Shown: positions 5,748-56,028 of the stretch, one piece after another
Layout of the letters: every line of letters begins with the position of its first letter
How positions within the stretch are numbered: position 1 is the first letter of the stretch
Origin: an uncultured Candidatus Saccharibacteria bacterium
GTDB taxonomy: Bacteria; Patescibacteriota; Minisyncoccia; Phycocordibacterales; PCTT01
Direction: 5' to 3'
Assembly: GCA_964566505.1 (NCBI GenBank)
Contig: CAZMIM010000002.1
Location: forward strand, 46,529-110,528
Length of the DNA: 64,000 nt
The notes under the pieces: model-generated
What the model was told of the DNA's origin: nothing
The model's input: only the letters and a program-made list of their open reading frames with translations
The model's database searches: none
Translations under genes and position numbers: made by a program

Positions 5748-6554
5748 TTAACGAATTTGGTATGTAATTGTTACTGTTGAACGAATTGTATTCTCTCCAA
5801 CAGGGATATTTGCTGTCGGATAAGAAACCGCACCGTCCATCATCGCATCTCCTCCATATGCTCGTGATTCTGCATACATCACACCTGGATACCCCCTATC
5901 TTCATAAAAGCTAGCTACTCTTACAATCCTTACACCAAGATCTTTTGCAAGTCGCTTTGCTTTTTCTTCCGCATCTTCAATCGCCTGCTCTCTTGCATCC
6001 GCTTTTAGTGTGTCCTCGTCATCAATTGAGAAATTGATTCCTGAAACATTATCAGCCCCTTCATTTCCTACAAGTGATAGCAAATTACCAACCGCTTCAG
6101 TGTCTCGAACTTTTACTTGTACAGCATGATTTACCTCATATCCGCGAAGCTCTTCTCGTCCTGGCTCACATGGATATGTAATACACTGAATTCTAATGTA
6201 GTCGTATTGTGGGTAAATGTTGTAGCTAAGAGTTTTGATGTCTTTTTCTTCTACATCATTCTCTTTAAGCAAATCAAGAATTGCATTCATTTCTCTTGTA
6301 ACAACCTCTTGTGCTGAAGCAACATCCTTTGCCTCTTCTCGCACAGTGAATGTAAATGTTGCTACATCTGGAATAGCCACCACTTCCCCTTCTCCTGTAA
6401 CACTAATAGTGTTTTGATACGCAAACTCAGAACCGATAAATCGAGTCTCTTTTGCTTCATTAATAAACTTAAATAGCACAAACAACGAAAGAACAGTTAG
6501 GAGCAAAAGTCCCATGTTTACAAGCTGTTTTGTTTTATTCTCTGGAATAATCAT
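5748..6554 (-). CDS. SIMPL/DUF541-family secreted protein
   Basis: 268-aa ORF with an N-terminal TM/signal anchor and the pattern ISVTGEGEV..IPDVA.F.F.V...A.....A similar to 26-kDa periplasmic immunogenic protein-type SIMPL domains. Confidence 0.7.
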   Translation of the reverse strand: MIIPENKTKQLVNMGLLLLTVLSLFVLFKFINEAKETRFIGSEFAYQNTISVTGEGEVVAIPDVATFTFTVREEAKDVASAQEVVTREMNAILDLLKENDVEEKDIKTLSYNIYPQYDYIRIQCITYPCEPGREELRGYEVNHAVQVKVRDTEAVGNLLSLVGNEGADNVSGINFSIDDEDTLKADAREQAIEDAEEKAKRLAKDLGVRIVRVASFYEDRGYPGVMYAESRAYGGDAMMDGAVSYPTANIPVGENTIRSTVTITYQIR

Positions 6555-6644
6555 ATGTATATATGGTTATTATCTTTATAATCACCCGTAGTATAACACC
6601 CTTATATAAATAAGAAACTCTTTTGTATAAAAGGCATCTAATTG

Positions 6645-6673
6645 TTGACCATAGTGTATTTTTATGGTATCTT
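6645..6673 (+). promoter_or_regulatory. Candidate promoter of the GC-rich OmpA-like gene
   Basis: TTGACC-17 nt-TATCTT; a GAGG Shine-Dalgarno lies 8 nt before the ATG at 6722. Confidence 0.4.
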
Positions 6674-6721
6674 CCCGACGGAATTGAAACTAAACAACCA
6701 ACCATCTTTTGAGGTAATTCA

Positions 6722-7852
6722 ATGAAAAAGATTCTTTGGTGGATTGCACTCTTGGCACTCGTGCCGATGTTTGCAACCGCCCAGCAGATGGAGTACACCA
6801 GCACGGAAAAATTTCCTGTCGGTGAACACGAAGCTCCTGTAAGCCTCAGGACAGAACTGCGCGACGCTGTGTGCGGAGAAATCCGTGGCGAAGCGCACGT
6901 TATTGTACGAGGACACTACGACAGTCGTGAATACCCACTGGACAACCATGATCAGCAGTTCTTTTTAGGGCTCAGACGTGGTGCTGATGTAGCTCAATAC
7001 ATGGAACGCGTGTGCGCAATGCACAGAAGCAACTTCTCAGTACAGAGCTCATTTGCGCCCGGTGATCCGGACGACCCTCAAGGGAACGAGTCCAGAACAG
7101 TCACAATCATTTGGGGATTCTCAGATACTTCAGACTTCCAAACGGCTCAAGACTCCTACAACATGGACCTGGAGGACTTCTTCAACGAATTCCTCAATCC
7201 TTGGAAGGAGCTTGATCTTGCAAACCAGGCAGAAATGCTTGAGATTATGCGTTCTGTTGATGAGAAAATGATTGCATCGCAACTACAGCTTGCAAACATC
7301 TCTCGTCAAATCGATGAGCTTGCAGCCATGTCATGGAAACTCCCTCGCTGGAGCTTCCAGACCGGCATGCAGTTCTCGAGCAAATTTGGAACTGGCTTCA
7401 CCTTCTCGCTTTGTCGTAACTACTTTGACCAGAACATCGACTTCTGCCTCAAAGCATTTGCGGAAAACGAAAGCCACGAAGCACAAGCACTGCACCGCCC
7501 CTACCCTAATCAAGAAGTTCTTCATTGGGGAAAGTGGTACAGTGCCTCACTCATCATCAGGCCGTACCTGAAGAGCTTGGGCGAAAGTGCTCGAATCTTC
7601 ATGGACCTCGGTATCGGAGTAGCTCACGTGAACTACAATGGACCTCCGGACAAAAGCATCGGATACAACACTACCGGCATCATGCCCTCGATCGGATTTG
7701 GTCTCAAAACCAGATGGCGTTCGTGGGGGCTGGAGTTCGTAGGTACCGAGGAAGTCTGGATGTTCCCACAAGGCGTGGTGCTCCCGTCTTTCGAAGATGG
7801 TGACTACCATGTGAGCCTAGCTGGCTCTTTTGCTCTTTCGTATCATTTCTAG
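6722..7852 (+). CDS. Secreted OmpA-like (peptidoglycan-binding) protein with beta-barrel-like C-terminus; compositionally foreign
   Basis: Signal peptide MKKILWWIALLALVPMFATAQQ. OmpA_C-like pattern VRGHYDS...LGLRRGADVAQYM...NESRTVTIIW. The C-terminus ends ...SFALSYHF (terminal Phe, as in the OMP beta-signal). G+C is visibly higher than in the flanks. Confidence 0.6.
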   Translation: MKKILWWIALLALVPMFATAQQMEYTSTEKFPVGEHEAPVSLRTELRDAVCGEIRGEAHVIVRGHYDSREYPLDNHDQQFFLGLRRGADVAQYMERVCAMHRSNFSVQSSFAPGDPDDPQGNESRTVTIIWGFSDTSDFQTAQDSYNMDLEDFFNEFLNPWKELDLANQAEMLEIMRSVDEKMIASQLQLANISRQIDELAAMSWKLPRWSFQTGMQFSSKFGTGFTFSLCRNYFDQNIDFCLKAFAENESHEAQALHRPYPNQEVLHWGKWYSASLIIRPYLKSLGESARIFMDLGIGVAHVNYNGPPDKSIGYNTTGIMPSIGFGLKTRWRSWGLEFVGTEEVWMFPQGVVLPSFEDGDYHVSLAGSFALSYHF

Positions 7853-7874
7853 GAAGTACCGCTTCCTATACAAA

Positions 7875-7907
7875 ACGCCCCGTTGCAGAATGCAACGGGG
7901 CGTCTTT
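7875..7907. terminator. Bidirectional terminator between convergent genes
   Basis: ACGCCCCGTTGC-AGAA-TGCAACGGGGCGT followed by CTTT. Confidence 0.6.
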
Positions 7908-7917
7908 CGTTTAATCT

Positions 7918-8409
7918 CTATTCGAAAAGTGGAAACTTTCTTACAAATGCAGTCTTTCTCCATTTCTTTGCACAACCAAATGTATACCCTGAATCAGAAA
8001 GTGCAAACACAAACATCAAAAACGCATATATAAGGTGGTCATCCATAAACGGATTGTGCTCTGGTGGCATAAACCCAGCTACATACATAAGTAGAAGTAT
8101 AAAAGCTCCAACATAACTTGATAGCTTTACTGCAATACCGAAAAGAAGACCTACACCTACCCCAAGTAACCCAAGCATAAAGAGCCAATCAACAAATGGA
8201 CTTCCAGCAAGTGATTGGAAAAAATCCATAAACGGTCCTGTTGTTGCGTGTGTTAAGAACCCTGATGTTGGTGAACCTCCACTGAGCCACGCCGCCTCTT
8301 TTGGAGTAGCAAATCCAAGTCCGCACAACTTATCAAAGAATGCCCATAGGAATATCCAACCCATAGAAATTCTAAGAAGTGCGACTATTTTTTTAAGTGA
8401 TGCATTCAT
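7918..8409 (-). CDS. DoxX/DoxD-like membrane protein
   Basis: 163-aa ORF with 4 TM helices and the N-terminal pattern LRISMGWIFLWAFFDK typical of the DoxX family. Confidence 0.55.
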   Translation of the reverse strand: MNASLKKIVALLRISMGWIFLWAFFDKLCGLGFATPKEAAWLSGGSPTSGFLTHATTGPFMDFFQSLAGSPFVDWLFMLGLLGVGVGLLFGIAVKLSSYVGAFILLLMYVAGFMPPEHNPFMDDHLIYAFLMFVFALSDSGYTFGCAKKWRKTAFVRKFPLFE

Positions 8410-8924: not shown

Positions 8925-9058
8925 TGGGCGACCACCGGGACGCTGCGCTATCTCACTCGCTCTAAAACGCTCTTTAAGAACCCACGGTTCTCAACGCTTC
9001 GCTGCTCTCCTCCACGGGAAAACTAGAGTTTTCCCGACCCCTTTCCTGTTCGATTCCC
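8925..9058 (-). repeat. tRNA-linked conserved element, copy A (downstream of tRNA-His)
   Basis: In the tRNA sense it starts GGGAATCGAAC (the reverse complement of the tRNA T-loop GTTCGATTCCC). It ends TCCCGGTGGTCGCCCA, identical to the last 16 nt of the tRNA-His gene region. The ~100-nt core is shared with 14746-14876 and 21635-21751. Confidence 0.8.
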
Positions 9059-9110
9059 TTAAATATTTACCCATAAAAGAAAGAGCGCAATAATGCGCTC
9101 TTTCTTTTCT

Positions 9111-9185
9111 TGGGCGACCACCGGGAATCGAACCCGAATTCCAGGTTCCACAAACCTGTGTAATAACCGTTATACCATGGTCGCC
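9111..9185 (-). tRNA. tRNA-His (anticodon GTG)
   Basis: Cloverleaf read by eye: extra 5' G(-1), anticodon arm CAGGT-TTGTGGA-ACCTG, T-arm CGGG-TTCGATT-CCCG. Own hairpin terminator at 9075-9108. Confidence 0.85.
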
Positions 9186-9750: not shown

Positions 9751-9771
9751 AGTGCTAAAACAATAACAAAA

Positions 9772-9803
9772 CCCCGTCTGTGTGTCTACACAGACGGGGT
9801 TTT
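9772..9803 (-). terminator. Terminator hairpin; identical 28-nt hairpin at 11864-11891
   Basis: CCCCGTCTGTGT-GTCT-ACACAGACGGGG followed by TTTTG on the minus strand. Confidence 0.65.
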
Positions 9804-9808
9804 GGACT

Positions 9809-11788
9809 TTATCTACCAAACAATGACTTTACTACTACTTTGAAAGCATTTTCAATTGCATATACTGCTGTAGCAAATTGAGATTTCTTTTGTGTTTCTT
9901 CAACAAAACCAAAACTGCTACGAAGACCTATTGAATACTCAAGAATTTTCTCTGCATCTATTGAGTTAATCTCACCACTATCATCTACGTCTGCAACAAG
10001 TTGAGCTTTTGCCGAAAGAAGCTCTGTGCCGTTTATATGCTGTGATACAAGAGCTGCATCATGTGATGTAACGCTTCCATCAAAGTTTACATCTCCATAA
10101 ATAAGATCTCGTGCTGGTATTTGCTCCACAATACCTATTGCATGCGCATTTACAATACGTGCATCAAGCATGGTAATTCGTGTATCACGATTTACATCTG
10201 AAAGCTCTTGTTGATAATCAGTTAGTGTTGAATTACCACTGACAAAACCTGCAATAAGACCTGCGTCATACGAAGTAATTTTTCCATCAAGAGAAACATC
10301 ACCCCTAAAACTTGTTGTAACATCTCTCACAACAACATTAAGTGAGTGTCCCTTGCCTCTTACAAAAGAGTTGTCACCATAAGTTGCTTCTACAACTACA
10401 GTGTATGTGTCTTCTGGTAGATTTTCTGGAAGTTTATAAATGTACTCTCCATCATTAATAGTACCTCTAACAACTGTATATTTATTAGCTCCCCAAAGTT
10501 CAATATCAATAGAGGCATCTAGGGGAACATTGAAAGAATTCCATGCAAAACTTACCGTATGTCCAGGATAACGCTCACCCTGATGTCCACTCACCGTTAT
10601 TGAAGGTTCTCCTACCTCAGGATTAACAACATTGAGTGAATGTCCCTTACCTCTTACAAAAGAGTTGTCGCCATAAGTTGCTTCTACAACTACAGTGTAT
10701 GTATCTTCTGGTAGATTTTCTGGAATTGTGTAGTTGTATAGACCTTCATTTTTAATACCCCTAACAACCGTGTATTTATTAGCTCCCCATAGTTCAATAT
10801 CAATAGAGGCATCTGTTGGAATATTTTCTGAAGTCCACACAATACTTACATCATCTCCTGGATGTCGGTATCCCCACGCTCCGCTCACATTAATTAATGG
10901 ATCTCCTGCCTCGGGATTAACTATTTTAAGTGGATACCCACTACCCTCTACAAGAGGCTCTGTATCATATGAACCAACAAATATTGTATAGTCACCTTCT
11001 GGAATATTTTCTGGAATTGTGTAGTTATACAATCCATCATTTTCCGTGTCGCTTACTACAACAAAACCTTTTTCTTTTGAAATATAAATATCAATAGGGT
11101 TGTTTTTCGGCACACCAACTGAATCCCAAGTAATACTTACTGTATCTCCTGGATGATACTCTCCCCAAACTCCATCAACCTTTATTGATGGAGTTGATAC
11201 TGAATTATTCTTAGGATTATTTGATGTATCTGAATTATCGTAATTTCCATAGCCAATACTTCCATCTATATCATCTTTAACAATAGAAACTCCCCCTATG
11301 GTGTCACACACTCGCATCGCACCCACAACCGCACACGTTTTTATTGCGTAGGTCCCTTCCGGAACAAATACTCCAGAAGCTGTGTACCCACCGTTGTCCC
11401 ACACATAAAAGCCAGAATTTTGCATTTGTGCAATTCTGTATTGTAAAGCCCCATTTATAAGGGTTATGTCCACAAGACTATTTGCTGCTATGTCTTCTGT
11501 CTCCCATTCAAAAACTATATTCTCCCCTAGGGTAAACACATCGTTTGAACTAGGTTCTGTTAACAAAATGTCATAATCAACTCCATAGGAATTATTAGTA
11601 CTAATGTTATTTGAACCAGAATCATCTCCTAAGAGAACATTTCGTATTTGTGTAACTACTGTGGTATCTGCACCAAATGCATTAAGTAAACTTGTAATTG
11701 CATTCACCTGCGCATCAGATAATGCATATGACACTGCTGGGACAGCAAAAAATGCAATAAGCATTATTGTAAGAAAAATCTTTTTCAT
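9809..11788 (-). CDS. Secreted surface protein with three tandem ~98-aa domains and two C-terminal dockerin-type repeat pairs
   Basis: Signal peptide MKKIFLTIMLIAFFAVPAVSYA. The domain repeats contain YTVVVEATYGDNSFVRGKGHSLNVV. Dockerin-like Ca-binding loops: GDVSLDGKITSYD, DVNRDTRITMLD, GDVNFDGSVTSHD, DVDDSGEINSID. Confidence 0.75.
   Translation of the reverse strand: MKKIFLTIMLIAFFAVPAVSYALSDAQVNAITSLLNAFGADTTVVTQIRNVLLGDDSGSNNISTNNSYGVDYDILLTEPSSNDVFTLGENIVFEWETEDIAANSLVDITLINGALQYRIAQMQNSGFYVWDNGGYTASGVFVPEGTYAIKTCAVVGAMRVCDTIGGVSIVKDDIDGSIGYGNYDNSDTSNNPKNNSVSTPSIKVDGVWGEYHPGDTVSITWDSVGVPKNNPIDIYISKEKGFVVVSDTENDGLYNYTIPENIPEGDYTIFVGSYDTEPLVEGSGYPLKIVNPEAGDPLINVSGAWGYRHPGDDVSIVWTSENIPTDASIDIELWGANKYTVVRGIKNEGLYNYTIPENLPEDTYTVVVEATYGDNSFVRGKGHSLNVVNPEVGEPSITVSGHQGERYPGHTVSFAWNSFNVPLDASIDIELWGANKYTVVRGTINDGEYIYKLPENLPEDTYTVVVEATYGDNSFVRGKGHSLNVVVRDVTTSFRGDVSLDGKITSYDAGLIAGFVSGNSTLTDYQQELSDVNRDTRITMLDARIVNAHAIGIVEQIPARDLIYGDVNFDGSVTSHDAALVSQHINGTELLSAKAQLVADVDDSGEINSIDAEKILEYSIGLRSSFGFVEETQKKSQFATAVYAIENAFKVVVKSLFGR
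10331..11210 (-). repeat. Intragenic tandem repeats, period ~294 nt (three copies)
   Basis: 10331-10431 and 10625-10725 differ at only 5 positions in ~100 nt. The rest of each unit and the third unit are much more diverged. Confidence 0.75.
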
Positions 11789-11863
11789 GAAAATATAGTT
11801 ATTTATATATAAAAGAATTATAGCAAATCAAACATGTGTATTATTTAGATATGCACAACAAAG

Positions 11864-11891
11864 CCCCGTCTGTGTGTCTACACAGACGGGG
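11864..11891 (-). terminator. Second copy of the 28-nt hairpin
   Basis: CCCCGTCTGTGTGTCTACACAGACGGGG, identical to 9772-9799, just after the stop of the 11898-12338 gene. Confidence 0.55.
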
Positions 11892-11897
11892 TTGAGG

Positions 11898-33152: not shown

Positions 33153-33587
33153 CTAGTAAGGCGTGACCTTAACTCCCAGCAGACCGTTGTAGTGGCGATA
33201 AACGCTCACATCAACCATTGCGCACCCTGAATTTCTGTCGAAGCGGCTTGCTTTAACAGATACAGGATCGGCGCGGACAGTTCGATTTTCCGAATCAATG
33301 AGATTCACATAGACATTCACTCGCGCGTCTGCTATGTACCTCCCATATTCATCAGAGAGCCTGTCTCTGTCGATGGTATGGCGTGAGTAACCAAGATACG
33401 GCACATTGACAAAATTGTCCTCCTGGCCGGTCTTGGCACGAACTGTCATCCCTTCCTCGGTTGAGTTGAAGACTTCTACGCACCCAGCGTAATGGGCGTC
33501 GAAATATCCCCCTTCTTCAGTGAGAGAGTCAACGACACCGCACCCTGTCAAAAACACAACAGAGCAGATCAAGAAAATACGTTTCAT
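33153..33587 (-). CDS. Lipoprotein of unknown function; compositionally GC-rich
   Basis: MKRIFLICSVVFLTGC is a lipobox (L-T-G-C). The start is placed at this Met. A TTGACA-18-TATAAT promoter lies upstream. G+C is visibly higher than in the neighbours. Confidence 0.6.
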   Translation of the reverse strand: MKRIFLICSVVFLTGCGVVDSLTEEGGYFDAHYAGCVEVFNSTEEGMTVRAKTGQEDNFVNVPYLGYSRHTIDRDRLSDEYGRYIADARVNVYVNLIDSENRTVRADPVSVKASRFDRNSGCAMVDVSVYRHYNGLLGVKVTPY

Positions 33588-41650: not shown

Positions 41651-42748
41651 CTATTTGTTCATCGGCATTGCGATGTAGATAAAACTAGAATCCCCTACCC
41701 CTTGAACATAAATAGGTTTTCCAGGCCCTATTTTAAAAACCAAACTGTCTGTCGTTATTGATTGAAAACAATCAAAGACATTACGATAACTAAAACTAAC
41801 TGTCTGCGGGTCTCCTGAGAGCGCTGCAGAGACATTAATTGAGCTTTCTCCAAGCTCTTTATTGCTTGTTTTTATAATAAACTTTTTCTCTTTTGGTTTT
41901 ACCTCGAATGTAATTCTATTGAATTTGTCTGAGAAAATATTTGCCTGCTTCATAACATCAATAACATCTTGTTTTAGAACCACACACTCTGTTTCATACT
42001 CTTTTGGAATAATCTGCCTATAATCAGGAAATACTCCATCAACAACTCTTGATGTTACATACAAATCACCAATAGAAAATCCTATTTGATTTTGAGTAAT
42101 ACTTATCTCAACTTCACCTTTAATATCATCAAAAACCTTAATAACATCTGAAACATTTTTGAATGGAATCAAAATTGATTCAAAATCATCAAGTGATTTA
42201 AATGAAACACTCTTTTCTGCAAGTCTAAATGAATCTGTTGCAGCAAACACAACAGAACCTGACTCGTTATATATATAAACACTCGCAAGCTCTGGTTTCA
42301 TACTTTGCGGTGAAGCACTGTACCAAACAGATTTTAGACCATGAATAAATTTATCAATAGGAAGTTTTAGTGTTTTATCAGACACAACACGAGGAATAGA
42401 AGGAAATTCTTCATGAGGATATGTTTTTACTTTTGTTTGTGAATTATTTGTAGTTACAAGAAGAGTATTATCTTTTGTTTCGAGAGTAATTTTTGAATCT
42501 TGAGTTATGTTCCCAATAAAACTCTTGAGAAGCTCGGCAGGAACAGCTACTGTGCCCTCTTCTTCAACTTTTACAGGTATTTTTATCTCAACTCCCAGAT
42601 CAAGATTTGTTGCTCGAATAGTGAGAGTGTTATTTTTTGCTACAAGCAAAATATATTTCAATACAGGTAACGTAACATTTTTACTTGTTACCTTATCTGC
42701 TTTTGAAATTGCATTCTCTATTTTTTCTTTTAAACATTCTAACTTCAT
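41651..42748 (-). CDS. dnaN: DNA polymerase III beta sliding clamp
   Basis: 365-aa ORF immediately downstream of dnaA with a collinear DnaN pattern (PVLKYILLVAKNNTLTIRATNLDLG...). Confidence 0.9.
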   Translation of the reverse strand: MKLECLKEKIENAISKADKVTSKNVTLPVLKYILLVAKNNTLTIRATNLDLGVEIKIPVKVEEEGTVAVPAELLKSFIGNITQDSKITLETKDNTLLVTTNNSQTKVKTYPHEEFPSIPRVVSDKTLKLPIDKFIHGLKSVWYSASPQSMKPELASVYIYNESGSVVFAATDSFRLAEKSVSFKSLDDFESILIPFKNVSDVIKVFDDIKGEVEISITQNQIGFSIGDLYVTSRVVDGVFPDYRQIIPKEYETECVVLKQDVIDVMKQANIFSDKFNRITFEVKPKEKKFIIKTSNKELGESSINVSAALSGDPQTVSFSYRNVFDCFQSITTDSLVFKIGPGKPIYVQGVGDSSFIYIAMPMNK

Positions 42749-43012
42749 GGTTGTGTATTATTTTCTTTTTTAAATATATTATTACTATTATTAGGGCTGT
42801 TGATATGTGGGAAAGTTGTAAATATAAATCTATATAAGGATGTATTTGAAAATATTTTTTGTGAAAAACACTGCTTATATGAGGATTAATGGTGATAATT
42901 TGGTTAATAACTTTGACTGATTGATACTTATTAAATACTTTCAACATTTACTTTCTTTTTTATACCTAAGTTATTCATATTTGAAATCACCACCTATGCA
43001 CATATTTATCCC
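42749..43012. other. Very AT-rich dnaA-dnaN spacer, candidate part of oriC (DNA-unwinding region)
   Basis: 264 nt, strongly AT-rich by eye. Only weak DnaA-box-like sites are present (TGTGGGAAA at 42806-42814). Confidence 0.4.
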
Positions 43013-44359
43013 CTATAACATATTTCTTATCTGGTGGATTTCTTGAGATAACACACTGTCTGTCTCTAACTCTTTCTTTATCTTTTCATACGAGTGAATT
43101 ACTGTTGTATGGTCCCTACCCCCAAGTTTCTGGCCAATTGTTGGGTATGCGATGTTATAGTCTTCACGAAGTATATACATAATAATTTGCCGAGGTTTTA
43201 CCACTTCTTTCTTTCTAGTCTTTTTATAAACATTCTCCTCTTCTATATTGTAAAAATCAGTAATGATTCGAATAATATCCTCAATAGGAGCTGTTCTTTT
43301 TGATTTAATACTGTTTCGTACAAGATGTTTTACCTCATTTAAAGAAAGTTCTCTATCTTTTAGTTGTGATTGAACAACAACAACATTAAATACCCCCTCA
43401 AGTTCTCGGATGTTGCTCCCAATCATAGATGCAAGATAATCAAGAACCTCTGGGTTTAGAGTTATGTTGTGTTGTTTTGATTTTGCTTGAAGAATCGCAA
43501 CTCTAGATTCGTGGTCTGGTGGAGAAATATCAACTACCATACCTGCGCTAAATCGAGATTTAAGTCTATCTTCCATATTTTGAAGATAGTTTGGGTGCAT
43601 GTCAGACGAGAAAATAATCTGCTTGTTGTTGTCGTATAGAGTATTGAATAGATGAAACAGCTCTTCTTGGCTCTTCTCTTTCTTAGAAAGAAACTGAATA
43701 TCATCCATAATCAAAACATCGTATTTTCTATACTTTTCTTTAAAGAGGTTCATTTTATTTTGACGAATTGCATTTGTTACATCAACAACAAACTTCTCAG
43801 ATGTCATATAAAACACTTTTATATTCGAATATGACTTCTTTAGGTGGTTTCCTACAGACTGAATAAGGTGTGTTTTACCACAACCAGTGCGTCCATATAC
43901 AAAAAGAGGGTTATATACCACACCAGGACTCTTTATGATTGCCTGAGAGGCTGCATATGCAAGCTCATTGAATGGTCCAACAATAAAAGAATCAAAAGTA
44001 TATCGAGGGTTAAGGTTGTCTTCCCTGTTTATGTATACATCACTTAGTGGTAGAGCTCCTTTTGTGAGATCAAGGTCACTTGAGTGTTCTGCTATTTCTT
44101 TTGCTTCAGGTTTTTCTCTTGTTACAACGTACTCAACACTTCGCACATGCTCTACAAGTTCTCTAAGGGTTTTGAGAATAAACTTATGATATTTCTCAGA
44201 TAGCCATGTTTTTACAAATTCATTTGGTACTCCTATATATACAACTCCATCTTCTTCCTTTAAAATATATGTCTCGCTAAACCATGTGTTAAATGTTGCT
44301 TTTGTTACATTTAGTTCTGCTTCTACGAGTACGTTTTCCCAAAGTTGTTTTGTATCCAT
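43013..44359 (-). CDS. dnaA: Chromosomal replication initiator protein DnaA
   Basis: Walker A GRTGCGKTHL, Walker B LIMDDIQFL, sensor motifs, and a C-terminal DnaA-box-binding domain (IGQKLGGRDHTTVIHSYEKI). The start is placed at MDTKQLWENV. Confidence 0.92.
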   Translation of the reverse strand: MDTKQLWENVLVEAELNVTKATFNTWFSETYILKEEDGVVYIGVPNEFVKTWLSEKYHKFILKTLRELVEHVRSVEYVVTREKPEAKEIAEHSSDLDLTKGALPLSDVYINREDNLNPRYTFDSFIVGPFNELAYAASQAIIKSPGVVYNPLFVYGRTGCGKTHLIQSVGNHLKKSYSNIKVFYMTSEKFVVDVTNAIRQNKMNLFKEKYRKYDVLIMDDIQFLSKKEKSQEELFHLFNTLYDNNKQIIFSSDMHPNYLQNMEDRLKSRFSAGMVVDISPPDHESRVAILQAKSKQHNITLNPEVLDYLASMIGSNIRELEGVFNVVVVQSQLKDRELSLNEVKHLVRNSIKSKRTAPIEDIIRIITDFYNIEEENVYKKTRKKEVVKPRQIIMYILREDYNIAYPTIGQKLGGRDHTTVIHSYEKIKKELETDSVLSQEIHQIRNML

Positions 44360-44581
44360 GTCTAAAAAGTTAGTGTGTCTATTATATAATGATGGGGAAA
44401 ACGCTATAACTTGTGGAAAGTATGTAAATATGTTAATAATGTGTGGATACAATACCAGGATTAGTATATAAAAGTATGTCAACAACCCCATACCAGAGCA
44501 AAGCACGGTACAGGGCGAGAAATAGACAAAAACATACTCCTAGTATATAGTCTTAAGGTAAAAACTTGTAAATAATACGTT
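44360..44581. other. dnaA-rpmH intergenic region with DnaA-box-like sites (candidate oriC / dnaA autoregulation)
   Basis: TGTGGATAC at 44443-44451 is the reverse complement of GTATCCACA, 8/9 to TTATCCACA. TGTGGAAAG at 44412-44420 is 7/9. Confidence 0.45.
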
Positions 44582-44716
44582 ATGTCAACAACATATCAGC
44601 CCAAAAAAAGAAAAAGAAGTAAAACACACGGGTTTTTAACTCGTTCAAAAACAACTTCTGGGAAAAATATTCTCAAAAGTCGTCGAAGAAAAGGCCGAAA
44701 GAAGCTTTCAGTGTAA
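44582..44716 (+). CDS. rpmH: 50S ribosomal protein L34 (not in the ORF track; 44 aa)
   Basis: ATG at 44582 reads [44 protein letters not shown], the canonical L34 pattern. It is followed by rnpA. Confidence 0.85.
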
Positions 44717-44721
44717 ATACT

Positions 44722-45057
44722 ATGTCAACACACAAGCACAGAGTTTCATCAAAAGACTTCTCTGTAGTTGTTTCAACTGGAAAAACAGTTAGAAACGGTG
44801 TGTGTACTCTTAAATATATAGAAAATGAGACACCACAATCCCCTACTTTGGTGTCTTTTTCTATACCAAAATCAGTTGAAAAAGGTGTAGTAAAAAGAAA
44901 TAAGCTAAAAAGAGTGGGTCGAGAAGTCCTTCGTTCTGTATATAAAGATATAAAACCAGGTTTTGTTTGTGTGGTTTTTTGTTATAGCAACAACAAAGAA
45001 GACATAACAATAGACATGGTTAGAGAGCTTTTTGAAAAAGCAGAGCTTCTAAATTGA
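44722..45057 (+). CDS. rnpA: Ribonuclease P protein component
   Basis: 111-aa basic ORF between rpmH and yidC with the RNR-like motif KRNKLKRVGRE. Confidence 0.8.
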   Translation: MSTHKHRVSSKDFSVVVSTGKTVRNGVCTLKYIENETPQSPTLVSFSIPKSVEKGVVKRNKLKRVGREVLRSVYKDIKPGFVCVVFCYSNNKEDITIDMVRELFEKAELLN

Positions 45058-45087
45058 AAAGAAGCTTAAATCAGGTACAATAACACA

Positions 45088-45858
45088 ATGATTGGATCAA
45101 TTTGGAACACTATTATATATAATCCGTTGTACAACGGATTCATTTTTTTAGCGGACATTCTACCATGGGCAGACCTTGGTGTGATTATTATCCTATTTAC
45201 TCTTGTTATTAAGCTTATTCTCTTCCCTCTTTCAATTCGCGCAACAAAAACACAACAAGCGGTGCGAACTATTGAACCAGAGATTAAAAAGCTCCGAGAA
45301 AAATATAAAAATGATAAACAAACACAAGCTCTCGAGGTTATGGAGCTCTATAAAGAGCACAATATAAAGCCTTTTTCTGGATTTCTTACTATTTTGATAC
45401 AAATTCCTATTATTTTTGGATTGTATTTTATTTTCCTACGAGGTGGACTACCAATGGTTAACGCAGACATATTATATTCCTTTGTTAAAGTTCCAGAGAT
45501 GATAAATACCACATTTCTCGGAGTGATGAATGTTACAGGAAAGAGCATTATATTGGCCCTGTTGACAGGTATAACTCAATTTTTCCATACAAAAATATCA
45601 TTTAAGAATCAAGACGATTTAAATGATAAAAAACTCGGAGAAGGTTCTTTGAAGGATGATTTTGTAAAGACAATGAAACTACAAATGAAATACGTGCTAC
45701 CTGTTTTTGTAGCGGTTATTTCATACACACTTTCAGCTGCAATCGCACTGTATTGGACAACAAGTAATATTTTTCATATAGTACAAGAGCTATATGTGGA
45801 GCGGATGGTACGTAATCCTAAGAAAAAGGATGAGTCCCCTGCCCCACAAAGCTCTTAG
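45088..45858 (+). CDS. yidC: Membrane protein insertase YidC
   Basis: Short Gram-positive-type YidC (LIKLILFPLSIRATKTQ...M..L.PE.KKL.EKYK.D.Q....E.M.LYKEH..NP..G). Confidence 0.9.
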   Translation: MIGSIWNTIIYNPLYNGFIFLADILPWADLGVIIILFTLVIKLILFPLSIRATKTQQAVRTIEPEIKKLREKYKNDKQTQALEVMELYKEHNIKPFSGFLTILIQIPIIFGLYFIFLRGGLPMVNADILYSFVKVPEMINTTFLGVMNVTGKSIILALLTGITQFFHTKISFKNQDDLNDKKLGEGSLKDDFVKTMKLQMKYVLPVFVAVISYTLSAAIALYWTTSNIFHIVQELYVERMVRNPKKKDESPAPQSS

Positions 45859-45859
45859 T

Positions 45860-46339
45860 ATGAATGAAATCCAACAAATAAAACAACTTATAGAGGAAAC
45901 ACTAAATAAGATGGGTATTTCATACACATCAGTATCTGTTGTTGATACAGAGCTTCCTGACTACACTAAGTTTGATATTGAAACACAAGAGAGTGGAATG
46001 CTTATAGGAAAAGATGGAGAACACCTGTCAGCGCTATCTTTTGTTTTGAGAAAGATGCTTGAGAAGCAGTTTGATACCCAAGAAACACCACGATTTTATA
46101 TTGATATTGGAGGATACCAAAAAACAAAAATTGAGAAGATTCAAAAAGTTGCAAAGATTATGGCAGAAAGAGCAACTTCGTTTAAGCGAGATATAGAACT
46201 CCCACCAATGACAGCGTACGAGAGAATGGTTATACATTCTACTCTCAAAGAAATGCCAAACATTGAGACAGAATCACAAGGAAAAGGAAGAGATAGAAGG
46301 ATTTATGTTCGCTTCAAAGAAGAAACACCCATTATTTAA
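45860..46339 (+). CDS. jag: Jag/KhpB-type RNA-binding protein (KH + R3H domains)
   Basis: LIGKDGEHLSALSFVL (KH-like) and LPPMTAYERMVIHSTL (R3H). The start is placed at MNEIQQIK, right after the yidC stop. Confidence 0.8.
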   Translation: MNEIQQIKQLIEETLNKMGISYTSVSVVDTELPDYTKFDIETQESGMLIGKDGEHLSALSFVLRKMLEKQFDTQETPRFYIDIGGYQKTKIEKIQKVAKIMAERATSFKRDIELPPMTAYERMVIHSTLKEMPNIETESQGKGRDRRIYVRFKEETPII

Positions 46340-46362
46340 AAAACCGCCAGAGGCGGTTTTTT
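46338..46362. terminator. Bidirectional terminator between jag and the convergent T4SS-like operon
   Basis: AAAAAA-CCGCC-AGA-GGCGG-TTTTTT. Confidence 0.65.
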
Positions 46363-47575
46363 AGAGCTCTATTCCCCACGCACTTAAGTCTCTTTTGTTT
46401 ATGAAGTAAAGATAATTTTCATCTTCATTGATAATAAGATTTGTTCCATCTATAAATTGAGAAACATCTTCTTGTGGGGTCATGATTTTGTCTGTAGCAA
46501 AACTGTTTATATCAACTTTCCAAAATACGTCATTAAAGAAAAACTCTCCTTTGTACCAATCATCAGGATAGAGTGCTTGTTGTATAAACTCAGGGACAGC
46601 ACAGTATAGTGATTCTTCTTCGAACCACGTACATTTCTCAGGAAGTGTTGTTATTGGAAGCTCCTGTGAGGTGTCTTCTGAGACATTGTACAGATATGTA
46701 TCGAAGCCACCAAAGATGTTTGTTCGTGCATACAAAACAAAAGAGCCTTCTGGTGATACGAGTGTTGTAAGGCCATCTGCAGACAGGATTTTATTAAATG
46801 AGCGGGATGAAACAGAGAAAAAATATAGTGAACCGTGTGTGTTTGCGGTTGGCGCGCTTGTGAATGCTATTTGGTTTGGGCTAAACCACTGCAGGTTCCA
46901 GTTTTTGTAAGAAGAGTTAAAGATATTTCGAGTGTTTCCGGTTGTTTGTGTGTAGTCTATACCAACAACATCCAAAACACGATCTATTAAGTAGAAATAT
47001 TTATTCCCTGCTGGTGATACAGCCACAGAAGAAATGTTGTTTGGTAAAAATTCTGTTTCAACACCGTTCTCATTAAGCACTCCCCACACACTCTCGATAC
47101 TTTCATAATCTGTATTTATATATTGATACAACACAGAGCCATTTTCACCTACAAGCGCTCTTTGAGAGCTTGGTACGGTTGTGTTCGAAACACGTTCTGT
47201 TTGTTTTGAGCTTGTGTCGTGCTCATATATATGACCGGTTGCCCTATTTACTATATATACACCATTTTCAGAAAGTCCAATTCCAGATGATGGTTGGTTG
47301 TGGGCTTTAAATACATTTTTAGCACTTCCACCGCTTACCCCAACAGAAGAAACAGCGCCTGAGTTTGTGCTCTCAAAAGGATCTTGTGTGGACTGGCCAC
47401 CTCCTCTATCGGTGTTCTCAGTTGGTTCTCCAAAAGGAAACAAGTCTACAGAGTCGTCTTGTCCCATTAAATCAATATTGTTATTTCCACCAATTCCACG
47501 AATTACAAAGAACCCCACAAGAGCAAGGATGAGAATGACAAGTATTAGAATTATAAAAAATCGCTTTTGGAACAT
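46361..47575 (-). CDS. Membrane-anchored protein, beta-propeller-like (last gene of the T4SS-like operon)
   Basis: N-terminal TM (FFIILILVILILALVGFFVI). It has repetitive beta-strand-rich composition reminiscent of TolB/PD40-type propellers. Its ATG lies 1 nt after the upstream stop. Confidence 0.45.
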   Translation of the reverse strand: MFQKRFFIILILVILILALVGFFVIRGIGGNNNIDLMGQDDSVDLFPFGEPTENTDRGGGQSTQDPFESTNSGAVSSVGVSGGSAKNVFKAHNQPSSGIGLSENGVYIVNRATGHIYEHDTSSKQTERVSNTTVPSSQRALVGENGSVLYQYINTDYESIESVWGVLNENGVETEFLPNNISSVAVSPAGNKYFYLIDRVLDVVGIDYTQTTGNTRNIFNSSYKNWNLQWFSPNQIAFTSAPTANTHGSLYFFSVSSRSFNKILSADGLTTLVSPEGSFVLYARTNIFGGFDTYLYNVSEDTSQELPITTLPEKCTWFEEESLYCAVPEFIQQALYPDDWYKGEFFFNDVFWKVDINSFATDKIMTPQEDVSQFIDGTNLIINEDENYLYFINKRDLSAWGIEL

Positions 47576-47576
47576 A

Positions 47577-48824
47577 TTAATCGTTATATACGGAAAAGTG
47601 GTCTGCAGAAATATGTGTCCCAAAGAACTTTATTTCTCCACCGCCGGGTATTGATATCCCCTCAAATGCTTCTAGTATTTTATCTGCTCTATTTCTTTCT
47701 CTTATTTCATACACAGCTCTTAACCCAGAATCGCTTGCAGCTTTAAAGAAAGACATCAGATATGCAACTTGTGTGTTTAAATCTGCAGTTTGAACCAGAA
47801 CAGCAGACTGGCCTGTGAAGTTCGCATCAAAACATGTTCCGTTGTAGTGACACTGACTCGCATGATTCCACTCTGGCGGGAAAGCCTCGGTTATTTGCCA
47901 CTGGATTTGCTGCTGACTCAGTGTTGTGTGTAAATTTTTAAGTTTTGGAATAAGATCTTTGTGGATACCCGTGTTCGAATCAGATTTTATAGGAAAATTA
48001 GCGTCTATTTCTTTAAAAATATCCAAACAATTATCTTCTCCTCCTAAGCACATTGCCCCAGAATCACTTGGCGACACAGCTTCATTTCCATCATCATCAA
48101 AATATATACAATCATCATAAACCTGAAAAAAGTTTTCTAGGTCAAGGTTTATAAAATTATTTGCCATAAGCGCGTATTGAGCGGTTTTACATTCTCCTTT
48201 GCTTTCAAAAGGTCCATATAAATCGTTTGTTAAGTGTACTCGAAAGTAAAAACCAGGGCCTCTGAATTGATTTTTGACCAGCGTTCCAAAGTTTGTTGTA
48301 GATGCTGTAGCCGGGCTGATACCCTTAAGTGAAGTGAGGTCTGGGTTTATTGTGTTTAGCAGCAGCACTGAAAGAAGAGCAATACCCAACCCCCAAAGAG
48401 CACGACGAACATCCGAAAGAGCATTGCTCTTCCCAGTAACAGAGCCTTGTGTCATATACTTTGCACCAGCAATAACAATCATAAGCACAGCAAAAGCAGA
48501 CGCGAGCCCGATTGATAGTTTGAGAATACTGTTTACAAAATCAGCAAATGAACGCTCGTCTCCGATTGGTAAAACAGAAACATATCTATTATTTTCTGCG
48601 TCAAAACGAAGTTCCTGGCCTTCTATATTTATAGGGGCTAGTAAAACATAATCAGATGTTCCATTTGGTGTTGTTCCATATATATATGCTTCACATTCAC
48701 TTTGAGAAAGACCCTGGTATAGCATACATTCTTCTATAACCGTTCTTTGTGCGAAAACAAAAAATGGGGTTAGTAGAAAATAAAATACAATAAAACTAAA
48801 TAAGATTTTTTTCATAATATTCAT
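47577..48824 (-). CDS. VirB2/TrbC-like pilin-type protein fused to a ~230-aa C-terminal domain
   Basis: Signal peptide, then the two-helix hairpin FADFVNSILKLSIGLASAFAVLMIVIAGAKYMTQG...RRALWGLGIALLSVLLLNTINPDL, typical of TrbC/VirB2. The C-terminal domain carries SQCHYNGTCFDANF ... SADHFSVY. Confidence 0.55.
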   Translation of the reverse strand: MNIMKKILFSFIVFYFLLTPFFVFAQRTVIEECMLYQGLSQSECEAYIYGTTPNGTSDYVLLAPINIEGQELRFDAENNRYVSVLPIGDERSFADFVNSILKLSIGLASAFAVLMIVIAGAKYMTQGSVTGKSNALSDVRRALWGLGIALLSVLLLNTINPDLTSLKGISPATASTTNFGTLVKNQFRGPGFYFRVHLTNDLYGPFESKGECKTAQYALMANNFINLDLENFFQVYDDCIYFDDDGNEAVSPSDSGAMCLGGEDNCLDIFKEIDANFPIKSDSNTGIHKDLIPKLKNLHTTLSQQQIQWQITEAFPPEWNHASQCHYNGTCFDANFTGQSAVLVQTADLNTQVAYLMSFFKAASDSGLRAVYEIRERNRADKILEAFEGISIPGGGEIKFFGTHISADHFSVYND

Positions 48825-49516
48825 TATATATCACCAAATATTAGACGTAATTGCTGAGAAGCTCTAGAGAAAAGGTTGTTTTTATCACGAGCGGACAAAC
48901 TAATAGAAACAGAGCCTCCTACCCCACCATCTCGCAGAGTTATTTTTGGAGAATTATTATTTATTAAGTTTCTATTGATTTTCCACTCATAATCAACAAA
49001 ATAAGAATCTCTTTCTGAGGCAAAGAAGAACGGATACGCCTCGAGCGTAATTTCTGTGTCTGTTGTGTTTATCTCATCACCCCATGATTGTCCAAAAAGA
49101 GTTCCAAGAGCGGGGTTGTTTTTGTAAATATATATTTCTGGGTCTGATACTTGGAGAGAAATACTTTTATTTGAAATTACAGCGCCGTTCTCATCCACTA
49201 GCTCAAGCGTTACTGTATTATTTCTAGGAGAGCTTGTGAACACAAAAGTATCTTTACCAACACCAGATTGCTCAGCAATACCGTAGTTGTTAAATCTCCA
49301 TCGATAATTTAGTGATTGAGGATTTACCACATCAACAATCGCAACAACACGAACACTAGCGCCTACAGTAATAAGGGGTCGGCCTGTATAAAATGGCGGT
49401 GTATATGTTTCTGCTTCCCAAAGCAGATCAATATCATCTGCGGTCTGTGCACTTACTACATTAGAAAAAGAAAGAAAAACAAAAAGTATTATTGTTATGT
49501 AGAGTATTTTTTTCAT
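48824..49516 (-). CDS. Secreted hypothetical protein (T4SS-like operon)
   Basis: Signal peptide MKKILYITIILFVFLSFSNVVSAQ, beta-rich. The start and stop codons overlap the neighbouring genes by 1 nt. Confidence 0.5.
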   Translation of the reverse strand: MKKILYITIILFVFLSFSNVVSAQTADDIDLLWEAETYTPPFYTGRPLITVGASVRVVAIVDVVNPQSLNYRWRFNNYGIAEQSGVGKDTFVFTSSPRNNTVTLELVDENGAVISNKSISLQVSDPEIYIYKNNPALGTLFGQSWGDEINTTDTEITLEAYPFFFASERDSYFVDYEWKINRNLINNNSPKITLRDGGVGGSVSISLSARDKNNLFSRASQQLRLIFGDI

Positions 49517-49920
49517 TATGCTGCTCTATTTATAAGTCGCTCTTTTCTAGCAACTCGCTCTTGTTGGACACGAGAAAGTGTTTGGTTTGTTTTTTGTGCA
49601 CTTTGTTTCTCAGTATCCTCTTCTCGAGTTGCTTTGATGTTTAGAAATACTACTGTCGTAAGCTCAGGCAAAGCATTCACGATTGGTATAAGACCAACAA
49701 TCATTCCAACAACAGCTCCTTGCGCCATCTTTTTGTTTTGTGTGTATGGTGCGCCATTTATAATGAACCACACAGGAAATATTATCCAGCTCGCGAGCCA
49801 TGTTGCCCAGTTTGCAACAGTCCCTACCGCAAGGGCGGTAAGCAAAAGCTCTAGCAAGTCAATAAAGAGTGCTGTTCCGAGCATAAGCCATTTTGTGATG
49901 TCGCTGATTCGGTAGTCCAT
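49516..49920 (-). CDS. Small 3-TM membrane protein (T4SS-like operon)
   Basis: 134-aa ORF with three hydrophobic helices and a basic C-terminal tail. It has 1-nt overlaps on both sides. Confidence 0.5.
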   Translation of the reverse strand: MDYRISDITKWLMLGTALFIDLLELLLTALAVGTVANWATWLASWIIFPVWFIINGAPYTQNKKMAQGAVVGMIVGLIPIVNALPELTTVVFLNIKATREEDTEKQSAQKTNQTLSRVQQERVARKERLINRAA

Positions 49921-51737
49921 TATTGTTGTGGGTTAACTGCGTCTTTTTGGTTCTTTATAGCCAAAAGCTGAGACGGGTCAGATGTAATTATTTGATCTTC
50001 TGTGTAAGAAGCAATAATCTTTATAGCCACATGCTTTAGACCTGCAAAGAATATTCCTTCCCCTACCCCAGATTCAAGGAGCAGATACTTTTCTTCGTCA
50101 GTTAGGTTGAAAGTTTTTTGCACTTCTTCAATGGCAGATGGACTTTGTTTTAGTAGTAGCTGTATAGAAGAGTTTGAGATAATAGGCATGCCGTATGGAG
50201 ATTTCAAAAAGTCGCCAACATCTTGTGTAATAGTTGAAAGCCCGAGGTAGTATTTTCGTCCTCGCTTTGCCATTCCAAACAGGAATGATGCAGTATCTTC
50301 TGAGCGCATCATCCACCACGCCTCATCAATTACCAAAAGCCGTTTCTTGAGCTCTTTTCGTACGGCGTTCCATATATAGTGGGTTACGATATGCATCGCT
50401 ACAGGCTTTAGCTCGTCTTCCATATCTCGTACTGAGAACACTACAAATTTCTTATCAATATCTACATTTGAAGCTTTATTAAGGAAGCCCGCCCATGTTC
50501 CTCGAGTGTATTTTGAAAGACGCTGTACAAGCGAGTCTGTTCCCTCTATTCCCGCAAGCACAAGCTCAAAATCAGATAGAAGCGGTGGCGAAATGTCTTT
50601 TAGGTCAGAGTCAGGGGTAATGTCTTTCAGCGCGTATGTTTCAGTTATAGCTTTGTCGATAATAGAATCCTCTTCTGGTGTAAGTCCACCGAGCATGATT
50701 CGCATAAGTCCCACAAGAGACACGATATGTGAACGAAGTACGTCTGCAGGAGACTCATCTTCTCGTGGTTTTGGAAGATCAAATGGGTTTATGTGGTGCT
50801 CTGATGTGAGTGAGATGTTGAAGTACCTACCGCCAGTAGATTCTGCTAGATATTCGTATTCTCTTTCTGGGTCAATAACAATTACATCAGTTCCAAACAT
50901 AAGTGAACGCAAAATCTCAAGCTTGGTAGCGTATGATTTTCCAGAACCAGCTTGCGCAAATGTTACAGAGTTATAGTTTTCCATTGAAAAACGGTCGAAG
51001 AGTATCAGGCTTGAGTTGTGTCGGTTGATTCCATAAAGTATTCCCCTATTTGATGTCAGGTCAAAAGAAATAAATGGGAACAAGCTAGATAGTGGTGATG
51101 AGTTTAGCTTTGAGTGCACTTTTAATGCATCGCTTGATATAGGAAGAACGCTTTTAAAGCCTTGCTCTTGCTGGAAGAGTGCTGGTTTTAGGTAGATAAG
51201 TTTTGATTCCAATACTGACTTAAGCTCTGACTCAATTTTATCGAGCTCATCTGAAGAGTCTCCATAAATAGTTATATAGAGCCCAACATCAAAGATGCGC
51301 TCTCGTGCTTGTTGTAGGTCATCTCGGAGCTGTTCAAGGTCTTGATAAGCTGTATCAAGCATTGGGTCTCGCACGAGTCCTTTTTCGTATCGTGTATTGA
51401 TTTGGCTTTCTACTTCAGCAACTTTTTTCTGGAACTTTTTTAGTATTTGGGCTGTGTCTATTGGGTTTACCACAATAGATACATCAAATTCCCTATCCAT
51501 GTTTACCACAGGAGAAAACCAACTATCAGAAAGAAACCGAGGGTACGAGATTACGAAAAATGTTCGAGCAACCTTGTCCCCCAGACCAAGCTCTTTTGAA
51601 GAAACTTTTAGTGCAGAAGGTGCAATAACATCTTGAAGCTCCAAAACCCCAGCCTCGTATATTTGCTGCGGAAGCACTGGTGTAATAGAAGGGTTTGCAG
51701 ACTCTTTATTCTTTTTTAGAAAATCAAATATGCCCAT
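49920..51737 (-). CDS. virB4: VirB4/TrsE-family type IV secretion ATPase
   Basis: Walker A AQAGSGKSYATK, DPEREYEYL, Walker B LLVIDEAWWMM, and the N-terminal pattern ARTFFVISYPRFL typical of VirB4-like proteins. Confidence 0.85.
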   Translation of the reverse strand: MGIFDFLKKNKESANPSITPVLPQQIYEAGVLELQDVIAPSALKVSSKELGLGDKVARTFFVISYPRFLSDSWFSPVVNMDREFDVSIVVNPIDTAQILKKFQKKVAEVESQINTRYEKGLVRDPMLDTAYQDLEQLRDDLQQARERIFDVGLYITIYGDSSDELDKIESELKSVLESKLIYLKPALFQQEQGFKSVLPISSDALKVHSKLNSSPLSSLFPFISFDLTSNRGILYGINRHNSSLILFDRFSMENYNSVTFAQAGSGKSYATKLEILRSLMFGTDVIVIDPEREYEYLAESTGGRYFNISLTSEHHINPFDLPKPREDESPADVLRSHIVSLVGLMRIMLGGLTPEEDSIIDKAITETYALKDITPDSDLKDISPPLLSDFELVLAGIEGTDSLVQRLSKYTRGTWAGFLNKASNVDIDKKFVVFSVRDMEDELKPVAMHIVTHYIWNAVRKELKKRLLVIDEAWWMMRSEDTASFLFGMAKRGRKYYLGLSTITQDVGDFLKSPYGMPIISNSSIQLLLKQSPSAIEEVQKTFNLTDEEKYLLLESGVGEGIFFAGLKHVAIKIIASYTEDQIITSDPSQLLAIKNQKDAVNPQQ

Positions 51738-51738
51738 A

Positions 51739-52383: not shown

Positions 52384-52385
52384 AG

Positions 52386-52829: not shown

Positions 52830-52834
52830 AATAA

Positions 52835-53413: not shown

Positions 53414-53416
53414 TTT

Positions 53417-56014: not shown

Positions 56015-56028
56015 GAATTAATTAATGA

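Follow-up and report, generated by a model that had tools for sequence, protein, structure and literature searches.

A GC-rich gene and its expression signals

The window, by which we mean the whole 64,000-nucleotide (nt) stretch of DNA analysed here, belongs to contig CAZMIM010000002.1 (positions 46,529 to 110,528) of the GenBank assembly GCA_964566505.1 from an uncultured Candidatus Saccharibacteria bacterium. Our subject is a single gene close to its left end, at 6722..7852 on the forward strand, which encodes a predicted envelope protein and differs sharply in guanine-plus-cytosine content (GC) from the DNA around it. The gene, its expression signals and its two conserved neighbours are arranged as follows.

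5748..6554, reverse strand: SIMPL/DUF541 envelope protein, conserved upstream neighbour and left edge of the conserved locus
6645..6673, forward strand: candidate sigma-70-like promoter, TTGACC-17-TATCTT with a TG extension, by consensus match alone
6711..6714, forward strand: Shine-Dalgarno sequence GAGG, read directly, 7 nt 5' of the ATG
6722..7852, forward strand: coding sequence, 376 amino acids plus stop codon, the outlier of the window in GC at third codon positions (GC3)
7875..7913, forward strand: intrinsic terminator, a 13-bp stem with 9 G-C pairs (hairpin 7875..7903) followed by a T-rich tail
7918..8409, reverse strand: DoxX/DoxD-like membrane protein, conserved downstream neighbour and right edge of the conserved locus

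A preliminary description of this DNA, made from the letters alone, had already pointed to a hairpin terminator, and the G+C-rich 13-bp stem with its T tail was indeed located 3' of the gene. The local-style promoter of the same description fares less well: the two hexamers are present at the stated 17-nt spacing, but promoter-like sites are hardly more frequent in the region than in shuffled sequence (three found against 2.2 expected), and the match is not significant by itself.

The composition of the gene is exceptional by every measure that we applied. Its GC is 0.504 (0.552, 0.398 and 0.562 at the first, second and third codon positions, GC1 to GC3), in a window of overall GC 0.39. The mean GC3 of the 57 long open reading frames (ORFs) of the window, this gene included, is 0.303 (sd 0.061), and against the 61 remaining window ORFs (0.301 ± 0.053) the gene stands at z ~4.9. 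It is also the most GC-rich 1131-nt stretch of the 64 kb (0.508, the runner-up peak reaching 0.462), and the step in GC coincides with both edges of the ORF, the adjoining 100-nt bins lying at 0.30-0.35. Thus, the preliminary picture of a GC-rich outlier, roughly half G+C and rich in GC-ending codons, is borne out, including at synonymous sites, where four-fold-site GC is 0.442 in the gene versus 0.218 in the other ORFs, and C/(C+T) at two-fold sites is 0.714 versus 0.369. Since GC1 and GC2 are near normal, the GC excess is synonymous.

An abrupt compositional change at both ends of an ORF is what an assembly chimera could leave behind, as the preliminary description had considered. However, a separately assembled Logan contig of 1661 nt (SRR15635848_111994) agrees at every position with window 6498..8158 and runs over both junctions, although it may share reads with the NCBI assembly; the identical protein (P0001) is present in NCBI and Logan. 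The same gene order and the same compositional step recur in unrelated assemblies (NCBI, JGI, ENA and Logan), where synteny reproduces both joins, and the regulatory signals of the gene are coherent. We therefore consider a chimeric origin of the segment scarcely credible.

Architecture of the encoded protein

The encoded protein is divided into four parts, listed here with their positions in the gene.

6722..6781, forward strand: Sec-type signal peptide (MKKILWWIALLALVPMFATA), read from the sequence, with predicted cleavage after A-T-A
6791..7126, forward strand: OmpA_C/MotB/Pal-like peptidoglycan-binding domain (N-domain), residues 24-135
7127..7330, forward strand: alpha-helical stalk, residues 136-203 (helices 136-163 and 169-202), modelled at a predicted local distance difference test score (pLDDT) of 48-62
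7334..7849, forward strand: predicted C-terminal eight-stranded amphipathic beta-barrel, residues 205-376, ending F-A-L-S-Y-H-F

Relatives of this protein were collected by an exhaustive HMMER search of 1.84 billion (1.84e9) cluster representatives, which defined a rare family of 13 clusters, namely the window protein and 12 relatives (E 9e-76 to 1e-8, identity 29-42%), all 13 sharing one common architecture. Other routes gave little. A direct Pfam/NCBIfam scan of the window protein returned nothing usable (KH_12 at E 0.094, MotB at E 0.21), Pfam OmpA found no match in the window copy alone at E <= 10, and a word-indexed homology search retrieved only the protein itself or, with the family profile as the query, two of the 13 members. 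One family member carries the UniRef label 'OmpA-like domain-containing protein'. An N-terminal hydrophobic segment equivalent to the signal peptide, often ending in AQ or AQAQ, is found in the full-length family members, while P0006 and P0007 lack this region.

All of the motifs quoted in the preliminary description (GHYDS, LGLRRGADVAQYM, SRTVTIIW and SFALSYHF) occur in the protein, and its proposal of an OmpA_C-like pattern in the N-terminal part is supported at the level of the family. Pfam OmpA (PF00691) matches three of the 13 members, with a best E value of 8.5e-9, and a profile built from the six closest N-domains reaches PomB (7e-6), MotS (2e-4) and Pal (3e-3) among the sequences of the PDB, as well as Omp38 and TssL. 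Because orthologues and the subfamily profile match, the window N-domain can be assigned to PF00691 by transitive homology. Within the subfamily, G64-H65-x-D67 and L82...R86 are invariant, as are two cysteines, C51 and C98. D67 (in GHYD) and R86 (in LGLRRG) align to the GHTD and LSSQRA motifs of PomB, the corresponding subfamily patterns being GHhD and LslnRA. In characterised OmpA-like domains, this Asp/Arg pair contacts the peptide stem. The N-domain also has the alpha/beta fold expected of an OmpA_C-like domain, and structural searches of the PDB with the N-terminal half of the model return OmpA_C-like domains (Foldseek). Judged by homology, then, the N-domain of the window protein is an OmpA_C/MotB-like peptidoglycan-binding fold in which the Asp/Arg pair is retained. 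A second branch of the family (L002, L008, L092 and L093) carries a variant of the OmpA-like motifs, GYTN...LSEQRA.

For the remainder of the protein we turned to structure prediction. Whereas AlphaFold run on the single window sequence reached a pLDDT of only 33.8, the model built on the 13-sequence family alignment has a mean pLDDT of 79.5, with ~91 for the N-domain (24-135), 48-62 for the helices and mostly >90 for the strands within 205-376. The coiled-coil-like middle of the preliminary description stands as far as the two helices are concerned; at the pLDDT of this region, the coiled coil itself is only probable. The Alanine_zipper family of Pfam, which is of the Lpp/OprI type, matches two family members (E 0.0019), and we regard the stalk as probably a coiled coil.

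The C-terminal half, described earlier as Gly/aromatic-rich and barrel-like, is modelled as an antiparallel, putatively closed meander of eight strands (209-219, 225-234, 239-258, 265-286, 290-306, 318-332, 335-347 and 363-375), with three short turns at the end that holds the termini and four longer loops at the opposite end. Its top structural matches in the PDB (Foldseek) are OmpA, OmpX, Ail, OmpW, the N-terminal half of OprF, PagL and TtoA, all of them eight-stranded outer-membrane barrels. Across the family, one face of the strands is hydrophobic (51% aliphatic, 16% aromatic) and the opposite one has a high share of Gly, Ser and Thr (34%), with several invariant glycines. The C-terminus of the window copy, as the preliminary description had observed for SFALSYHF, has the form of a C-terminal Phe beta-signal (hydrophobic-x-hydrophobic-x-Y-x-F). 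The model thus predicts an outer-membrane-type eight-stranded barrel. Six family-invariant residues (E248, H252, R259, H268, S312 and G314) lie at or near the barrel loops far from the termini. Since such clustering of invariant residues is unusual for outer-membrane proteins, it suggests a putative binding or catalytic site at the far end of the modelled barrel.

The locus in related genomes

The window encodes EF-Tu, ribosomal proteins, dnaA, dnaN, PolA, a class A penicillin-binding protein, a Mur ligase and Ddl, along with a type IV pilus ATPase and a TraG/VirB4-like type IV secretion ATPase with a pilin of the type IV secretion system (T4SS). This gene content fits the published description of Patescibacteria (PMC12102498), and the closest relatives of the genes neighbouring 6722..7852 are found in Candidatus Campbellbacteria and other Patescibacteria genomes; on these grounds the source is a member of the Patescibacteria of the Campbellbacteria type. 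All recovered genomic contexts of the family resemble those of the Candidate Phyla Radiation (CPR); one is a named Candidatus Campbellbacteria genome, and none is diderm-like.

Two conserved chromosomal slots can be recognised. In its fullest form, the first runs from EF-Tu through L10, SIMPL, in some cases YceI, and PAP2 to the gene, which lies on the opposite strand, and continues through the DoxX-like gene and a gene for a 129-aa product to cobalamin adenosyltransferase. The whole order is present in L004 (NCBI GCA_041601015.1) and in L089 and L091 (both JGI), and the Campbellbacteria contig L013 carries the same allele as L091; the short contigs L005 and L096 comprise only the gene and its DoxX-like neighbour. 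Altogether, the DoxX-like gene adjoins five alleles other than that of the window (P0002, P0003, P0004, P0005 and P0009), and the upstream SIMPL/PAP2 side is present for P0002, P0003 and P0005. The SIMPL neighbour itself was found in L004, L006, L089 and L091, the window copy being 58-59% identical to those of L004 and L006, and the DoxX-like protein of the window is 60-63% identical to its counterparts, two of which are 91% identical to each other. Used as a query for further loci among species-representative genomes, the DoxX-like neighbour led to a single further family locus (L013), and the representatives returned did not include the genome of the window itself. The second slot, with the order RF-1, L31, the gene and an SLT_2 lytic transglycosylase, holds four alleles (L002, L008, L092 and L093; GC 0.42-0.48). 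P0009 has the N-domain type of the second branch, yet it occupies the DoxX-type slot. The DoxX/DoxD-like family as such, with at least 575 confirmed loci in species-representative genomes and identities of 45-60% across Actinomycetota, CPR, DPANN archaea and others, is unusually widespread for one of small membrane proteins.

The gene does not evolve together with its downstream neighbour. Mean protein identity is 31% for the family gene versus 69% for the DoxX-like neighbour, and the distance matrices of the two are uncorrelated (Spearman -0.04), by which congruence between them is rejected. The sharpest case is the comparison of L096 with L091. The DNA upstream is 95.4% identical, up to ~14 nt inside the ORF; downstream, similarity resumes 130-170 nt past the stop codon at 88.7% identity, and the DoxX-like proteins of the two loci are 91% identical. 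Between these flanks, the gene bodies have no detectable nucleotide similarity, their proteins are 26% identical, and their N-domains are of different subtypes. Here, then, one allele has cleanly replaced another within conserved flanks. Mosaic structure is found in P0011, where the final ~290 nt share 74-76% identity with the P0005 allele but the N-domain is of the other subtype. The gene is best described as a hypervariable, recombining cassette for a predicted envelope protein and as the most variable gene of its slot, and the horizontal exchange at this locus is one among related CPR genomes.

The compositional anomaly is a property of the whole family. In all ten distinct alleles for which neighbouring genes were available, the GC3 of the gene exceeds the mean of its neighbours (sign test, two-sided p = 0.002). 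The excess in GC3 is as follows.

Window: +0.26
L004 (P0003): +0.19
P0005 loci: +0.20
L089 (P0002): +0.10
L005 (P0004): +0.12, one neighbour only
L008 (P0008): +0.09
L002 (P0012): +0.01, negligible
L092 (P0010): +0.12
L093 (P0013): +0.07
L096 (P0009): +0.14, one neighbour only

In terms of overall composition, the family genes lie at GC 0.44-0.54 in loci of GC 0.37-0.49. Given that alleles only ~30% identical to each other are all GC-rich, the excess is a standing property of the cassette and not that of a recent import that has yet to ameliorate.

This bears directly on the origin proposed in the preliminary description, namely a recent horizontal acquisition from a diderm donor, possibly a host. 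Several features could be read in that way: a strong GC and GC3 outlier whose edges match the ORF, an architecture of the outer-membrane type, and a gene on the strand opposite to all of its neighbours. Against this, no homologue outside the 13-cluster family, and hence no diderm one, was found among the 1.84e9 representatives, and the same chromosomal position is occupied in related genomes of low GC by orthologues that are ~30% identical and share the GC3 excess, the very distribution that the preliminary description had named as speaking against its proposal. Such sharing is not what a recent import would show, and the composition of an old one would have ameliorated. Nor does the gene have the attributes of a recently acquired island: it stands at the same locus in relatives, no integrase or transposase adjoins it, and the repeats lie outside it. 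The preliminary description had placed the gene in a segment downstream of tRNA-His and a repeated element, but tRNA-His lies at 9112..9184 on the reverse strand, and the associated 16-nt repeat pair (8925/9111) covers ~190 nt only and excludes the gene, so that an island bounded by tRNA-His is rejected. In sum, a diderm import that has not yet ameliorated strikes us as very improbable.

The repeated element just mentioned is GC-rich and ~90-135 nt long and has three copies in the window (8925..9060, 14746..14873 and 21632..21764), each immediately downstream of a tRNA gene, namely those for His (9112..9184, reverse strand), Arg-TCT (14930..15002, reverse strand) and Ser (21496..21581, forward strand). 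At its far end, each copy exactly repeats the 3'-terminal 16-19 nt of its particular tRNA, and at the His and Arg copies a terminator hairpin lies between the element and the tRNA. The element matches no Rfam family and gave no blastn match in the orthologous loci; it looks like a small inserter at tRNA 3' ends, or like the scars of such insertions.

A different account of the GC3 excess needs no exchange at all: the gene would be inherited vertically and diverge fast, and its third positions would reflect selection on codons or mRNA stability in an abundant envelope protein, as in E. coli OmpA. The two-fold codons of the gene are shifted to C as in EF-Tu, with Asp, Phe, His, Asn, Tyr and Ile codons about as C-ending as there and ATA avoided, the excess is family-wide, and both the Shine-Dalgarno sequence and the terminator of the gene are strong. 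However, the four-fold families and the serine codon AGC depart from EF-Tu, the gene preferring CTC/CTG, ACC, CCG, TCG, CGC/CGT and AGC where EF-Tu uses CTT, ACA/ACT, CCA, TCA/TCT and CGA, and the EF-Tu and ribosomal protein genes of the window have a GC3 of merely 0.25-0.38. Because the four-fold choices differ from those of EF-Tu, expression-linked codon choice alone is insufficient to explain the excess and is ruled out as its sole cause, although codon selection may contribute. Moreover, vertical divergence cannot yield unrelated alleles between flanks that are 95% and 89% identical. We consider this account as a whole unlikely.

Something, then, keeps the family gene GC-rich. Across bacteria, intragenic recombination correlates positively with gene GC, independently of codon selection (Lassalle et al. 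2015, PMC4450053). Since the locus recombines and this relation is documented (PMC4450053), we infer that the excess most plausibly stems from GC-biased gene conversion or from a shared, GC-richer pool of alleles.

A few other features of the window are worth recording. A second GC3 outlier is found at 33153..33587 on the reverse strand (GC 0.492, GC3 0.531), with C-rich third positions like those of the main gene. The gene adjoins that of the type IV pilus ATPase. Its product, a predicted lipoprotein of 144 aa (MKRIFLICSVVFLTGC...), belongs to no Pfam or NCBIfam family, and in a search of 5.8 billion proteins it matched only itself. At 9809..11788 on the reverse strand lies the gene of a 659-aa surface protein with Ig-like repeats, two dockerin modules and internal 294-nt tandem repeats, flanked by 37-nt palindromic hairpins that are 97% identical (9765..9801 and 11857..11893). 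The genes dnaN (41651..42748) and dnaA (43013..44491) stand beside the lowest-GC stretch of the window (0.29-0.34; region 41651..46000), which is probably the replication origin. Close to dnaA, a type IV secretion cluster extends over 46361..58476 and includes a T4SS pilin-like gene (47577..48824), the TraG/VirB4-like ATPase (49920..51737) and two ORFs of >800 aa that have no Pfam match (53417..55912 and 56029..58476). T4SS genes near the origin have been reported for Patescibacteria, with which the window agrees (PMC12102498).

A possible place in the cell envelope

Taking these observations together, we favour, with moderate confidence, the reading that the gene is a conserved, recombining CPR cassette for a wall-anchored protein with a membrane-type barrel. 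In such a protein, the N-domain would grip the cell's own peptidoglycan, and the stalk of ~65 residues would span the wall and carry the barrel to or beyond its outer face. There, the barrel would sit in a hydrophobic layer outside the wall, which might be the cell's own outer lipid layer or a host membrane. The protein could serve as a tether or adhesin, and the invariant cluster at the far end (E248, H252, R259, H268 and S312) as a binding or catalytic site. At its fixed slot, whole alleles are swapped between near-identical flanks, with mosaics among them, and GC-biased gene conversion or a shared allele pool would keep up the GC-richness.

A number of points weigh against this reading. As to the organism, published descriptions ascribe no outer membrane to CPR (PMC6744442), work on the tethering of outer membranes puts them in a monoderm clade with Chloroflexi (Witwinowski preprint), and no BamA/Omp85 was detected among the 20 window ORFs scanned, within 64 kb of the genome. 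As to the barrel, it stands on one AlphaFold model derived from just 13 sequences. No outer-membrane family of Pfam matched any of the 13 members at E <= 0.1, a profile of the barrel domain found only noise among PDB sequences at E <= 10, and the C-terminal F or W is present in about half of the family, the others ending in L or in a short extension. As to the cassette, the GC3 excess at L002 is negligible, and the link to gene conversion is an inferred one.

It is conceivable that the C-terminal half forms a soluble eight-stranded barrel for a hydrophobic ligand, similar in type to lipocalins, YceI or avidin, in which case the protein would simply be a wall-anchored binding protein of the kind usual in monoderms. 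The monoderm descriptions of CPR and the negative outer-membrane profile searches are at ease with such a protein; the ranking of outer-membrane barrels as top structural matches and the beta-signal of the window copy speak for the membrane-type alternative. We regard the soluble barrel as doubtful. The boldest version of the membrane-type reading, in which a presumed-monoderm CPR bacterium of the Campbellbacteria type would insert a stalked barrel, anchored in its own peptidoglycan, into a membrane, be it an unrecognised outer lipid layer of its own or the outer membrane of its host, without a canonical BAM machinery, we likewise hold to be unlikely as it stands. If it were true, a barrel inserted into a host membrane would bolt the episymbiont physically to the cell it lives on, the invariant His/Ser/Glu/Arg cluster might have host lipids as its target, and the swapping of alleles together with their GC-rich composition would be the mark left by an arms race over the range of hosts.

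The wall-anchored barrel that we favour has several counterparts among known proteins. OmpM of diderm Firmicutes, SlpA of Deinococcus and the SLH-porins of cyanobacteria share with it the succession of an N-terminal wall module, a stalk (theirs a coiled coil, that of the window protein probably so) and a C-terminal barrel, an arrangement that in these Terrabacteria tethers the outer membrane to the peptidoglycan (PMC10628300). Their wall module is an SLH domain, which binds pyruvylated or polyaminated wall polymers, however, whereas that of the window protein is OmpA_C-like (a Pfam scan of the 13 members found no SLH domain in the family N-domain), and their barrel is a large porin, compared with ~170 residues and eight strands here; the sequences are unrelated. 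Given the small, eight-stranded barrel, we view the window protein as an analogue and not a member of the OmpM/SlpA family. The OmpM literature counts CPR among the monoderms that lost the tether system (Witwinowski preprint).

OmpA and OprF of Proteobacteria are made of the same two folds, and OmpA and both halves of OprF are among the best structural matches. In the window protein, the order of the domains is inverted, with the wall-binding domain first and the barrel last, and the stalk of ~65 residues is added; unlike OmpA and OprF, the window copy fails to match Pfam OmpA on its own, and its barrel falls into no outer-membrane family of Pfam. The closest sequence relatives of the N-domain are MotB, PomB, MotS and Pal (PF00691), with which it has the GH(T)D and LS..RA motifs in common, but those proteins lack a beta-barrel and have a transmembrane helix or a lipid as their anchor. 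PagL and PagP are eight-stranded outer-membrane enzymes; the match to PagL is structural, without sequence similarity, and is a lead only. With regard to the locus, capsule and O-antigen loci and the alleles of porins and flagellins display the same combination of conserved flanks, unrelated bodies and mosaics. In contrast to loci of the capsule/O-antigen type, we are dealing here with a single-gene CPR cassette with a consistent GC3 excess. Hypervariable surface-antigen cassettes often show a GC deficit.

Literature searches on beta-barrels, BamA or OmpA in Patescibacteria turned up no earlier account of a protein of this kind. What is new here is a predicted wall-to-membrane tether composed of known folds in a new order and in an unexpected lineage. 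That one conserved protein should combine a wall anchor with a spacer and a barrel of the outer-membrane type clashes with monoderm models of the CPR envelope. CPR, or Patescibacteria, make up a large share of bacterial diversity and live attached to other cells. The family provides a concrete molecule with which to ask whether such a protein inserts into a membrane and, if so, whether that membrane is the bacterium's own or its host's. At the same time, the locus warns against equating GC islands with recent horizontal transfer, and it may lend itself to testing for GC-biased gene conversion in genomes of very small size.

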